The notes under the pieces were generated by a model that saw nothing but the letters and a program-made list of their open reading frames with translations, did no database searches and was not told the origin of the DNA. The position numbers were made by a program, and so were the translations under genes. From a virus (taxonomy: Duplodnaviria > Caudoviricetes): a stretch of DNA of 27,790 nucleotides. The DNA lies in the IMG/VR virus record IMGVR_UViG_3300027373_000195, positions 1 through 27,790 of that record; one strand, 5' to 3'. This document shows, one piece after another, positions 4,945 to 23,178 of this stretch. The number at the start of each line of letters is the position of its first letter. The first letter of the stretch is position 1.

Positions 4945-5706
4945 CTAATTGCTGATTAAAAGCTCCTTCCGCACCTGGGACCGACTCCCTTCCTTTTTGC
5001 TCATCGAGTATTTCAGCTCGACCTCTTCGATTAAAAACCTCTCAAATATTTTTCGCACCTCGGGTGTCTCGTTGAGGGTCATCAAGAACCGGCCTTTGAC
5101 GTTGGCCAACACCCCTGCCAGATCGTAGAAATCCTGCTCCACGAAATTATGCTCGTAGCCGTTGATCTTCCAATATGGAGGGTCGAGGAAAAACAGGGTG
5201 TAGTCCCGATCGTAGCGGGGGATCAGGTCGCGGAAGTCGAGACACTCGATCATTACATGAGATAGCCGGATCCAGGCTTCCTCCAGTAACCGCTGCAGGG
5301 TGAAGAGATTGAGTCGGGGAATACCCGTGGTTGAAGTTCCGAAGACCCGACCGCGACTACGCCCGCCGAAGCACATCCGCTGGAGATAGATATAGCGAGC
5401 GGCCCGCTGGATGTCGGTCAATGTGTCGGGATCGACCTGCATCAGCCGGTTGAATTCGTCCCTGGAGACTAGAGTAAATTTAAACTGGCGATGCAGTTCC
5501 TCGGGATGATGCTTGACTGTCCGGTAGAGGGTGATCAGATCGCGGTCGAGATCATTTATCACCTCGGTGCCCCTGGCCTCCTTGGCGAAAAAGACATTGG
5601 CCGCGCCGGCGAACACCTCGACATAACACTGGTGCGCCGGGAATTTTGAGATGATGGTTTTAGCGAGGCGGCTCTTGCCGCCAAAATAGGGTATCAATGA
5701 TGCCAC
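4945..5706 (-). CDS. D12-class (Dam-like) N6-adenine DNA methyltransferase at the mom position
   Basis: N-terminal IPYFGGKSRLA, motif I YVEVFAGAANVF, INDLD, catalytic FFLDPPY. GTG start with AAGGAG 6 nt upstream. Confidence 0.92.
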   Translation of the reverse strand: MASLIPYFGGKSRLAKTIISKFPAHQCYVEVFAGAANVFFAKEARGTEVINDLDRDLITLYRTVKHHPEELHRQFKFTLVSRDEFNRLMQVDPDTLTDIQRAARYIYLQRMCFGGRSRGRVFGTSTTGIPRLNLFTLQRLLEEAWIRLSHVMIECLDFRDLIPRYDRDYTLFFLDPPYWKINGYEHNFVEQDFYDLAGVLANVKGRFLMTLNETPEVRKIFERFLIEEVELKYSMSKKEGSRSQVRKELLISN

Positions 5707-20676: not shown

Positions 20677-21156
20677 AGGGTTCTCCTTGGGATACTGGAT
20701 CCCGATGTTATGATTGAGGGCCTGCAGGTGCAGATTCGGCTGGTTGGTCAGCCCGACCGAAGTCAGACCAGAGATCTCGCCACTGCCTTTTTTGTACAAA
20801 ATGACCGGGCTCAGGTAGCGATACTGCTTAGAGGCTATCAGATCCCTGCCGGTAGGGAGCCATTCGACACGGCCCCAGATGGCGCCGTGGATATTATGCA
20901 GGGACTTTATCCAGCCGGCGGCTGGGGCCGGATCGCCGGCGGGAGCCTTGAGTTCGGTGGCATGCTCGATATCCACCGGCAGATCCATACCCGCAGCTGT
21001 AAAGGTCTCAAGCACCGAATCGGGCGCAGAGTTGACCCATGACCGGCCGTCTCTGCCGACGATATCACCAGCCGGGATCAGCTCCACCATGCTCGGCACA
21101 TCGCCCTGGGGATTGCCGGGGATTTCGAGGCTGTTCAGCGCGGTTACCAGTTTCAT
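20185..21156 (-). CDS. Mu gpI-like prohead protease / scaffold
   Basis: LIPAG...GRDGRSW, LPVDIEHAT, APAAGWI, VEWLPTG...YRYLSPV, VGLTNQPNL; helical C-terminus ending ICERLGVTEEEY. Confidence 0.92.
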   Translation of the reverse strand: MKLVTALNSLEIPGNPQGDVPSMVELIPAGDIVGRDGRSWVNSAPDSVLETFTAAGMDLPVDIEHATELKAPAGDPAPAAGWIKSLHNIHGAIWGRVEWLPTGRDLIASKQYRYLSPVILYKKGSGEISGLTSVGLTNQPNLHLQALNHNIGIQYPKENPMHKAMLAALSLPENSTQEQALAKIDGLKADLAVALNHAHAPSLEKFVPRGDYDAALAKATNSEQQLAAIREEKLAGEIETAINAALEEGKITPATADYHRAQCRQEGGLERFGDFCKAAPVIGEPSGLEGKKTPKSDKALNADERTICERLGVTEEEYLKASA

Positions 21157-21692
21157 AATTTCCCTTCCATTATCCAGTTGGACAGCAGTTCATTGATATC
21201 GCCCAGATCTTCCTGCTGCAGCAGCATGAACGGTCGAGCCGGGATGTTGCCCCATGGCAGTTTAACGTTGCGGGTGTGACCTTTTACTGTGGCGGCCACC
21301 GGGAACTTGAGCTCTTTGCCAAAGGCTTCCTTGACGATCCGCTGGTGAGCATCAACTTTGACTGCAAACGAGCCGAAGCTGCCTTTCTTGGCGCCGAAGT
21401 GATGCACGGCTGCGTAGACCACATTGGTGCCGACGTAGACCGTGTCGCCGTCCACCTGCTTGCCAATGGAGTTTTTTAGCTTGCCAGTGTCCAACAACGG
21501 CTGGCCGTCGCGACGTTTGGGAGCCGGCCATTTGTTGGGTCGCCCTCCAACCTCGAAGTTAGTCCGGACCGATTCCCGGGCGAGGACACCAATGGCCTCC
21601 ATCGCTTTTTTCCGGTTTTGGATCCGGTTGCTGATTTCTCCCACTTTTTCCTGCAACTCGGCGTCATCAATTTTGTAAGTCAGCCCGCTCAC
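21153..21692 (-). CDS. Mu gpG-like virion morphogenesis protein
   Basis: LLDTGKLKNSI, VYVGTNVVYAAVHHFG, IPARPFM. Confidence 0.9.
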   Translation of the reverse strand: MSGLTYKIDDAELQEKVGEISNRIQNRKKAMEAIGVLARESVRTNFEVGGRPNKWPAPKRRDGQPLLDTGKLKNSIGKQVDGDTVYVGTNVVYAAVHHFGAKKGSFGSFAVKVDAHQRIVKEAFGKELKFPVAATVKGHTRNVKLPWGNIPARPFMLLQQEDLGDINELLSNWIMEGKL

Positions 21693-21807
21693 AAGGAACC
21701 CCGTTTAAACTATCTTTAGTCTTTCCTGTATTCGACCCGACCCTATCGGCCCGGCCTTCGGGACGGGTGGTCTCCAAGATCGACTACAGACCGTTTTTGA
21801 AGCTTTC

Positions 21808-21836
21808 TTGCTTTCTCCCAGAGCAGAGGCTATATT
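21808..21836 (+). promoter_or_regulatory. Antisense sigma70 promoter pointing at the 3' end of the MuF gene
   Basis: TTGCTT (21808-21813), 17-bp spacer, TATATT (21831-21836), in otherwise GC-rich DNA. Confidence 0.7.
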
Positions 21837-21842
21837 CTCCTT

Positions 21843-21925
21843 GGGACGTGACAGTCAGGGGGGCCACCCTGCGAGCGGAGGCTGTCACGTGTCGGATCGT
21901 GCGCCGATCCGATCATCGCCCCTTT
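21843..21925 (+). ncRNA. Candidate ~80-nt structured RNA convergent with the MuF-nuclease gene
   Basis: Stem ACGTGACAGTC/GGCTGTCACGT with an inner hairpin, second stem TCGGATCG/CGATCCGA, possible closing GGG/CCC then TTT; begins about 7 nt after the -10 box. Confidence 0.6.
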
Positions 21926-23178
21926 GCCGGGTACAATAAAAGCCCCCGCCGCTGCCTCTCGACATAGTCGAGATCAAACGCCCCATGGCTCAAGGGCATG
22001 TACGCCGTCACCCCTTGCAACACACCGCCCGCCACTTCGAACACCATCAGCCCGCCAACCCGCTCCTTGTCTTCGGTTTTCCAGAGACAGACATACCGTC
22101 TTGACAGCCTGACCTTGCCCGAGCCGTCTTTTTGCGGCGTCAACCAGATCTCAAAGGGCTGCTCGATGGCCACCTTGATCAGGGGAATCATGGCACCGTG
22201 TCCCGGCTTGCTAAACTTCCACTGCACCAGCCCTTCGCCTTCCTTGACGACTTGAAAGGGTCGCAACGAGAGGATGACCGGCTCGCCGATCGCGTCGCTG
22301 ACCACCAATTCCTCGCCATACCGGCTGACAAACTCCCGTGCGTACTCGGCATCGCTCAAACCCGAGGGTAGGAGCATCGAAGCATCGAGATCGGGGATTG
22401 TCGCCGGCCGCACCTTTTCCAAGGCCGGACGACGGTAATCTTGCGGCCCGCGTAAATTATCCAGCGGTCTGAACCGGTGCCAGTCCTTGGTCTGCTGTTC
22501 GACTATCCCCCCATGGACCACCTTGCCGGGATTGTGCGCGAAACCCTGGTCAGGCAGCAACTGCCGTGCCGGCATCCGGTTACCGGTGTGCGGATCGACG
22601 GGCTCGATCAAGGTATTGGTCGGGTCGATCTCTTCTACCTTGAGGCCGCGCCGAGCCACCTGGCTCTTGGTCAGGCCGGTGACGGAACAGCGGCACCGGT
22701 AGCCGTTGGGCGGGAACCAGGTATCCCACATTGGATGCTCCGCTGGCCACACCCGCCCATCCATGGCCAGGTGCGTAGGACGAGTGCGCGAATCGTTGAT
22801 CGCCGAATATCGCCAGTAGGGGAGCAGGCTGCCGTCATCCTTCAGCTGTTTGTAGTGGCCGACGTTGTAGGCGGTCTGGATGTTGGTGCGGAAGATGTTG
22901 TCCACCCGCCAGGCCCGCTTACCGGTCCAGCCCCGGCGCTCGAAGATATCGCCGCAATCTTTCTTGAACTGCTCAAAGGTCGTACCCTGGTCGATAGCCC
23001 GCTGCAGGGCGGTGCACACCGTGTCCAGTTCGTTGCCCTTGGCAATTCCCGAGATAGCGAAGGCCTTGACCTTGGCTTCATCGGAGAGTTTGGCGAACTC
23101 ACCTGGGCCGAGTTTGACCTTGTCGCGCCAGAACTGCTGCGCCTCGGCCATAGGCAAGGGCTCGATGCGGACGGTCAT
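21913..23178 (-). CDS. MuF (gp30) minor head protein with a C-terminal PBECR2-like nuclease extension
   Basis: MuF domain: IFRTNIQTAYNVG, YWRYSAINDSRTRPTH, FPPNGYRCRCSV. C-terminal ~190 aa: LLPSGLS..EY, WKFSKPG, QPFEIW, LSRRY, GVTAY, YVERQRRGLLLY, resembling the phage Barnase-EndoU-Colicin-RelE (PBECR2) pattern from memory. Confidence 0.85.
   Translation of the reverse strand: MTVRIEPLPMAEAQQFWRDKVKLGPGEFAKLSDEAKVKAFAISGIAKGNELDTVCTALQRAIDQGTTFEQFKKDCGDIFERRGWTGKRAWRVDNIFRTNIQTAYNVGHYKQLKDDGSLLPYWRYSAINDSRTRPTHLAMDGRVWPAEHPMWDTWFPPNGYRCRCSVTGLTKSQVARRGLKVEEIDPTNTLIEPVDPHTGNRMPARQLLPDQGFAHNPGKVVHGGIVEQQTKDWHRFRPLDNLRGPQDYRRPALEKVRPATIPDLDASMLLPSGLSDAEYAREFVSRYGEELVVSDAIGEPVILSLRPFQVVKEGEGLVQWKFSKPGHGAMIPLIKVAIEQPFEIWLTPQKDGSGKVRLSRRYVCLWKTEDKERVGGLMVFEVAGGVLQGVTAYMPLSHGAFDLDYVERQRRGLLLYPAKGR

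Follow-up and report, generated by a model that had tools for sequence, protein, structure and literature searches.

A convergent kissing-loop RNA behind MuF-PBECR2 genes of Mu-like phages: a predicted nuclease-RNA module with probable toxin-antitoxin logic

The viral record IMGVR_UViG_3300027373_000195 (IMG/VR; Duplodnaviria, Caudoviricetes) provides a stretch of 27,790 nucleotides, here called the window, in which the minor head protein MuF carries a C-terminal domain of the PBECR2 type, a predicted ribonuclease (RNase). Behind the gene of this protein (21913..23178, minus strand) lie a promoter motif and a predicted non-coding RNA (ncRNA) of about 83 nt, with ends placed by inference (21843..21925, plus strand), which together face the gene from downstream. 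Comparison with related loci indicates that the nuclease and the RNA form a real and uncatalogued module with toxin-antitoxin logic. On balance, the RNA is probably a trans-acting antitoxin of the type III kind, which would bind and inhibit MuF-PBECR2 in place of protein immunity.

The association between RNA and nuclease was assessed in loci collected through the nuclease domain (62 viral, 13 genome, and 35 metagenome loci) and through whole-protein queries (9 plus 80 loci, many of them repeating earlier contigs). Once duplicates and loci with less than 150 nt of downstream sequence had been removed, there remained 83 loci with PBECR2, along with 29 other MuF loci. A covariance model of the RNA matches 62 of the 83 PBECR2 loci at E <0.01, including 8 outside its training set; there is one match per locus in all 62, always antisense and just behind the gene, and one match per genome in five of five whole genomes. 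In contrast, none of the 29 other MuF loci is matched (best E 0.17). Among PBECR2 loci, the outcome varies with the active site: the model matches 58 of 61 loci of the His type, 4 of 19 of the Arg type, and none of three with another residue. Thus, the co-occurrence with the nuclease extension and the absence after short MuF genes that the initial annotation had anticipated are both observed. The three His-type misses are a truncated gene (L108) and two loci to which we return below (L099 and L100). Where PBECR2 has neither His nor Arg, the element is absent in four of five cases (L062, L075, L194, L199), and short MuF genes, which lack the RNA, lead directly into the next gene or into an element like that at 21693-21807 of the window.

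Related layouts extend beyond the reach of the model. Judged by folding and by eye, many Arg-type loci have a promoter and a two-arm RNA of different sequence with complementary loops. The same two-arm layout, again with other sequences and judged in the same manner, accompanies the distant PBECR2 domains of the cultured phages RR1-B and RcapMu, of EBPR siphovirus 4, and of Ralstonia phage YO108_2; for instance, the loop pair is GGTGA/TCACC in RcapMu and GGTGT/ACACC in EBPR siphovirus 4. The F proteins of Mu, DMS3, JBD18, and KS10 are long, but no evident His/Arg motif and no promoter-RNA were seen in them by eye, and for this reason Mu is not a test case. Weak matches to PF18810/PF18812 at L227, L232, L233, and L236 were excluded as short solo genes with a protein open reading frame (ORF) directly after them, and L228, L230, and L231 as apparently unrelated. 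At L229, which has a weak PBECR-like match, a convergent promoter and a possible RNA lie inside the read-through C-terminal tail of the ORF.

The evidence for the RNA is comparative, because neither the folding of the single sequence, which is no better than chance (z -1.07 for the plus strand and -1.11 for the minus strand), nor a consensus promoter scan of the window, which does not list the motif (it agrees with 8 of 12 consensus positions), is remarkable. In the window, the model matches positions 21835-21926 with 71.5 bits, the window being one of its training sequences, and the predicted fold is a three-way junction on the plus strand. Its closing stem P0 pairs GGG (21843-21845) with CCC near 21919-21922, followed by TTT, so that its 3′ strand overlaps the last MuF codons. 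Stem P1 (21846-21856/21880-21890, 11 bp), which has a 3′ bulge, carries the inner hairpin P1b (21859-21861/21868-21870) with loop L1, GGCCAC (21862..21867), and hairpin P2 (21892..21912, paired at 21892-21898/21906-21912) carries loop L2, GTGCGCC (21899..21905), which is complementary to L1. L1 and L2 would therefore be the two halves of a kissing interaction. All coordinates given in the initial annotation were correct on direct reading of the sequence, and its compact structure stands in so far as P0, P1, and P2 covary; its inner stem AGGG/CCCT, nevertheless, had to be shifted by one base to the position of P1b, and the L1-L2 kissing pair had been missed.

To examine covariation, 54 of the 83 loci, picked for carrying the central motif, were aligned with plain MAFFT. 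In this alignment, double changes occur in 30 of the 31 proposed pairs, including 10 of 10 pairs of P1, 2 of 3 of P1b, 7 of 7 of P2 (where 91.5% of the cells are paired), and all six pairs of the kiss. The alignment has a covariation score of 0.439. Shuffles score 0.204, and none of 500 attains the observed value; sliding the partners gives no more than 0.186, although this last control is lenient since the structure was drawn from the same 54 sequences. The kiss has at least six pairs in 57 of 62 loci when one bulge is allowed. In 59 loci (L033, L044, and L087 were set aside here as atypical), four of the loop positions form standard pairs in every one of their 236 cells, and the protein tree requires 13 or more changes there. 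In effect, loops of quite diverse sequence still match each other (GGCCAT/ATGAGCC, GACTCAC/GTGAGTC, GACCCAC/GTGGGTC, GGTCAC/GTGACC, GGCTCGC/GCGAGCC, and GGATGC/GCATCC), and a locus outside the training set, L047, has GGCTAC/GTAGACC. These patterns indicate selection on a tertiary fold.

The RNA is read from the strand of the promoter, because G-U cells outnumber A-C cells there (186 vs 48 across loci in the model-fitted alignment), in agreement with the preference for this strand that had been noticed in the window. As for its 3′ end, the closure GGG/CCC followed by TTT that had been described is present in the window sequence, but a U-run (at least 5 T in 8 nt) follows P2 in only 20 of 62 loci, as compared with 12 of 62 in a control stretch. 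A general intrinsic terminator is therefore not supported, and the 3′ end of the RNA is uncertain. Other identities were also considered. A ribozyme or riboswitch is judged unlikely, as the unpaired bases are all variable, and a peptide encoded by the RNA was ruled out by single-base indels among relatives and the lack of a conserved start. In Rfam 15, the best match of the window has an E of 6.4 and 20 loci gave no matches; 15 further loci matched only tRNA, signal recognition particle (SRP) RNA, and int-alpA, none of them on the RNA itself.

The promoter motif is of the sigma70 type and has been correctly described, with a -35 hexamer TTGCTT (21808..21813, plus strand) separated by a 17-nt spacer from a -10 hexamer TATATT (21831..21836, plus strand). 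In the best upstream match of each of the 62 loci, the first three -35 positions are T, T, and G in 61, 60, and 61 loci, while the T, A, and final T of the -10 hexamer are found in 59, 62, and 61. A score of 15.5 or more, a threshold used together with weights set by the author, is reached upstream of 55 of the 62 RNA-model matches, in contrast to 1 of 62 on the opposite strand and 7.6% of shuffles. Behind short MuF genes, this score is reached in 2 of 12 cases, both within the next ORF.

The protein faced by this promoter has 421 residues, with the MuF domain at residues 53-166 (PF04233, E 4e-21) and its stop codon at 21913-21915. The resemblance of the C-terminal extension to PBECR2 nucleases holds, since residues 282-416 (21931..22335, minus strand) match PF18810 with E 2.4e-18 and 66.9 bits, far above the curated cut-off of 27.1. 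His327 (in KPGHG) and Thr391 (in GVTAY) are each at least 90% conserved among 38 homologues, and both are intact in the window. In the accessible part of the work that describes them, PBECR domains have an active-site layout of His plus Ser/Thr (PMC5512222), and His327 and Thr391 would be the catalytic positions following this layout. An AlphaFold2 model of the domain has a predicted local distance difference test (pLDDT) value of 91. Foldseek found nothing at E 0.001 or better with this model. In a fold comparison, the top entry was 3ao9 (Z 3.5, root-mean-square deviation 3.9, 90 residues aligned), with unrelated folds scoring alike, and chains of RelE, CdiA, BrnT, and colicin D (Z 2.5-3.2) were interspersed with unrelated folds. 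The structure matches are thus weak, and RNase activity is a prediction. MuF sits between the portal and the MuG/protease genes, and its C-terminal domain is exchangeable among relatives: where the MuF part is 60-77% identical, the extension is either missing or PBECR3-like, and a relative at 38% identity bears a peptidase-like extension.

The space behind MuF is also unusual for what it lacks. The gap (21693-21912), described in the initial annotation as the largest of the late operon, has 220 bp; its neighbours among the head genes either overlap or are spaced by less than 40 bp. No small immunity ORF lies directly downstream of MuF; the sense-strand frames in the gap have 27-34 codons and no ribosome-binding site, and the next late gene (21153..21692, minus strand) encodes a MuG-like virion morphogenesis protein (PF05069, E 1e-16) and is not an immunity gene. 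Only about 21808-21925 can be assigned to the module; the remainder of the gap (21693..21807, minus strand) resembles a separate conserved intergenic element. Two DNA sequencing runs cover the region, with no differences listed, and other contigs in both runs match 21685-21735; no RNA dataset holding the region is listed.

The same slot behind MuF is used with other C-terminal domains. A second family of C-terminal MuF nucleases comprises 12 loci with invariant His78 and Ser132; it is 37% identical to a PBECR3 match, neither PHROGs nor Pfam names it directly, and its profile does not align with PBECR2. A convergent promoter is found in 12 of 12 of these loci, together with an RNA of their own that is different and covaries (11 aligned loci), with a likely pairing CTCCC/GGGAG, seen as CCCCC/GGGGG in two loci by eye. 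The structured part of this RNA ends at the stop codon. This second RNA family, of about 100-120 nt and with the motif GACACGGTGATATTCTCCCGGCCGT, is found behind PBECR3-like MuF domains at L111, L112, L150, L151, L154, L171, L172, L175, L177, L184, L185, L189, L206, and L235. It reaches phages of Pasteurellaceae, with an element resembling it in a Mannheimia phage, and was not found in the E. coli genomes searched. A decayed member of the family, L152, lacks both promoter and RNA. At L115, where MuF has an HExxH peptidase motif, a convergent frame of 71 codons lies behind TTGACA-17-TAAAAT. Thus, the slot behind MuF looks like a place for lysogen-expressed immunity, which would be filled by RNA when the domain is a BECR nuclease. 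The frame at L115 (3891-4106, minus strand) has almost no leader and is a candidate protein immunity gene. In Rhodovulum phage RS1 (L205, 2682-2749), MuF has another His-bearing C-terminal domain, and a convergent TTCACA-17-TATATT lies only about 50 nt ahead of the stop codon, perhaps as a minimal version.

RNA-first searches in four partly overlapping sets of 151 genomes each gave 18 new loci. Five of them adjoin a PBECR2 gene or a fragment of one, although three of these repeat loci that had already been collected, and for the other 13, which come from 10 genomes, the surrounding 1.5 kb or so is free of PBECR2. Such free copies are predicted by a trans-acting antidote and not by a cis antisense RNA. 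By eye, a kiss of at least six pairs is retained in 10 of the 13. One copy, L239, takes the place of a spacer, as a whole RNA gene with its promoter in a 167-bp unit of an otherwise regular 61-bp clustered regularly interspaced short palindromic repeat (CRISPR) array, whose repeat we take to be type I-E-like; the flanking repeat is shortened on one side (1474-1641). Another lies between an integrase gene and int-alpA RNA (L240), another directly behind two tRNA-Ser genes and SRP RNA (L252), and two behind tRNA-Arg with TTGATT-17-TACTCT (L254 and L255). In genome G636, L250 and L253 share a 5′ hairpin leader, and in G646, L256 and L257 have short common flanks, which suggests duplication or mobility. 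PBECR2 was not found in seven of the nine free-copy genomes searched, the assemblies of which may be incomplete; the eighth has a short MuF only, and in the ninth a distant PBECR2 is followed by a different element of its own. The PF18810 profile matched none of five free-copy genomes, but controls were equally without a match.

In the mechanism that we favor, the host sigma70 promoter would be active in the lysogen and soon after DNA entry, when the late operon is still silent. The RNA, made beforehand and folded into a compact kissing-loop shape, would then bind the nuclease, so that MuF-PBECR2 made in the lytic phase or brought in by a related virion would be rendered harmless, and cells lacking it would be the first to suffer. 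By capturing the RNA gene alone, hosts and competing mobile elements could gain protection, which would account for the nuclease-free copies. Of the two mechanisms put forward in the initial annotation, antisense or bound decoy, the evidence favors the latter, because the tertiary fold is selected, the second-family RNA is almost wholly outside the ORF, and 13 copies are nuclease-free. More tentatively, transposable phages may possess a general polymorphic-toxin system in which each virion-borne BECR RNase is neutralised by its own convergent-promoter RNA, while bacteria and satellites capture free-standing immunity RNA units at tRNA, SRP, and integrase sites, and once as a 138-bp insert in a CRISPR array.

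Several observations weigh against an antitoxin. In L099, His and Thr are intact while the RNA and the -10 hexamer are deleted, and in L100, where they are also intact and the promoter is kept, the RNA is shortened to about 40 nt; a lethal toxin should not tolerate either state, unless these are dying prophages or assembly errors. Conversely, L179, with Leu at the His position, retains a sequence similar to that of L178, and L103 has the RNA behind a frameshifted gene. The model leaves 15 of the 19 Arg-type PBECR2 loci unmatched, and the RNAs there were assessed only through folding and visual inspection. As every unpaired base varies, there is no evident cleavage or recognition site. Furthermore, the weights and threshold of the promoter score are the author's own choice, and BECR RNases score only Z 2.5-3.5 in the fold search, level with unrelated folds. 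Regarding the free copies, only 4 of 13 reach the promoter threshold, L249 retains an apparent MuF gene end, so that some copies may be prophage debris, and the genomes that hold them are mostly incomplete assemblies. The sub-threshold copies could be read through from upstream RNA genes; free copies in general could also be prophage debris or an RNA with its own function.

A different role for the RNA, as cofactor or guide of an active ribonucleoprotein, would have MuF-PBECR2 bind and perhaps package it to act on a host or defence target. The co-occurrence would fit any obligate protein-RNA partnership, each nuclease family has its own RNA, and the persistence of L099 and L100 without RNA is a better fit to a cofactor than to an antitoxin. 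Nevertheless, nuclease-free copies are common among the new loci (13 of 18), the variation is in paired stems rather than in a variable single-stranded guide segment, the same slot is taken by a protein ORF behind the MuF peptidase, and a sigma70-type promoter opposing the late operon suggests that the RNA is expressed before the protein exists. This role thus seems unlikely.

It is less likely still that the RNA acts in cis, either as a type I-like antisense or by transcriptional interference, with a transcript into muF that silences leaky expression and a fold that stabilises its 5′ end only. The promoter does face the gene, the 3′ strand of P0 is inside the ORF in 49 of 62 loci, and a clear U-run terminator is missing from most loci, including the window. 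However, such an RNA does not need the kissing pair, which is conserved and covaries; the structured part of the second-family RNA stops at the stop codon, P0 is outside the ORF in 13 loci and retains 4-5 pairs in 7 of them, the nuclease-free copies have no cis target, and an antisense has no means against a protein that arrives in a virion. Equally improbable is that the RNA merely shares the cassette and has a nuclease-independent job of its own, for example as a decoy that occupies an RNA-binding protein of the host's defence, or as a small mobile RNA element. The 13 free copies in 10 genomes, some of them repeated with shared flanks, would suit it, as would the failure to find PBECR2 in most of the free-copy genomes searched, but at phage loci the RNA follows the nuclease family and the active-site state, and it is swapped when the domain is swapped. 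Finally, a function of the hairpins within the minus-strand late mRNA or at the level of DNA (as terminator, processing site, or portion of a gyrase-type site) is very improbable: the inverted repeats fold with similar energy on either strand and a hairpin begins at the stop codon, but the excess of G-U cells is on the plus strand, a U-run is lacking on the minus strand, the promoter motif occurs in a strand-specific manner, and the element is absent after short MuF genes although the same operon would need the same processing.

The module resembles several known systems without coinciding with any of them. In the accessible text on MuF polymorphic toxins (PMC5576092; Jamet et al. 2017), as in the window, a MuF N-terminus in the head module of temperate phages is joined to an exchangeable C-terminal enzyme domain, and virion delivery and protection of the lysogen are proposed. 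There, nevertheless, immunity is a protein, with a small immunity ORF following 89.4% of 191 MuF toxin genes and no mention of RNA immunity in that text, whereas the window has no immunity ORF. For the PBECR of polyvalent proteins (Iyer et al. 2017, PMC5512222), activity is predicted, and the accessible text names no partner RNA, promoter, or inhibitor. The type III systems ToxIN, CptIN, and TenpIN, as covered in the accessible part of PMC12283969, resemble the window in that an endoribonuclease-type toxin, which in the window is a predicted one, is paired by family with a small pseudoknotted RNA that is proposed to act through direct binding. Their RNA, however, is an H-type pseudoknot, and it is encoded within the toxin operon, ahead of the toxin, as tandem repeats with a terminator, whereas that of the window is a three-way junction with kissing loops, present as a single downstream copy on the opposite strand with its own promoter. 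The nuclease of the window is, moreover, a BECR-type domain on a virion protein.

With type I systems, the antisense overlap with the toxin mRNA is shared, as the RNA of the window covers the 3′ untranslated part and about four codons. The toxin of such systems is usually a hydrophobic peptide of less than 60 residues; here, a small stand-alone toxin is absent and its counterpart is a 421-residue virion protein with a nuclease domain. AbiF is reportedly a prophage-encoded HEPN nuclease with a role in abortive infection that is controlled by an upstream non-coding RNA antitoxin, but it is not a structural protein. The free copies recall the orphan immunity genes of polymorphic toxin systems, in which the immunity factor is kept without a toxin on mobile elements. 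To our knowledge, the orphan immunity factors described are proteins, in contrast to the RNA gene that would be the free unit here.

In the literature, no description of a MuF nuclease-RNA pairing was found, although motif lists in supplements (for example, Weinberg 2017, PMC5737381) or in subscription journals may hold such RNAs unnamed. Searches for MuF with RNA antitoxin, and for MuF with non-coding RNA, toxin, and prophage, gave nothing relevant, the name PBECR2 appears in a single paper, PBECR together with an ncRNA was not found in the literature since 2018, and neither MuF nor BECR occurs in the accessible main text of the Minerva preprint (10.64898/2026.09.22.753630). If the antitoxin reading is true, this would be the first case in which immunity to a virion-borne toxin rests on RNA. 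Polymorphic-toxin immunity has so far been described as protein, and the RNA antitoxins known to bind their toxin belong to a small number of type III families, all with the same gene layout. The locus leads to no fewer than two RNA families that are not catalogued, and others probably exist; they would bring these two concepts together. It would also explain many long MuF proteins without an immunity gene, provide predicted PBECR domains with a partner and an assay, and, through the free copies, show hosts and satellites collecting RNA antidotes to phage-delivered nucleases. As a search rule, one can look 70-130 nt behind BECR genes for a convergent TTG-N17-TAnnnT motif, and RcapMu of Rhodobacter capsulatus SB1003 is a cultured test case.

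Some further features of these phages deserve mention. The late region of the window phage is Mu-like, with portal, MuF, a MuG-like gene, the I protease, and the major head gene on the minus strand, and its close relatives with named genomes are mostly Desulfobacterota and comparable anaerobes. The element at 21693-21807, outside the nuclease-RNA module, ends in GAATACAG...TTTAAACGGGGTT and is common to short-MuF phages, in which a similar stretch was seen by eye directly after the MuF stop codon. The Mu gyrase cut site is located between G and I, but identity of the element with this strong gyrase site was rejected, as an alignment with the G-I intergenic region scored 38, against 45 +/- 5 for shuffled sequences; a functional analogue is possible. 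In the short MuF genes of L161 and L162 (2984-3040 in both), an in-frame TGA stands at the first Cys of a conserved C-R-C motif, a 7-bp hairpin lies 15-33 nt downstream of it, and the frame continues as a normal MuF, so that a phage-encoded selenoprotein is possible. Close to the end of the late region, the window encodes a D12-class adenine methyltransferase (4945-5706, minus strand), in a place that presumably corresponds to that of the DNA modification gene of Mu.

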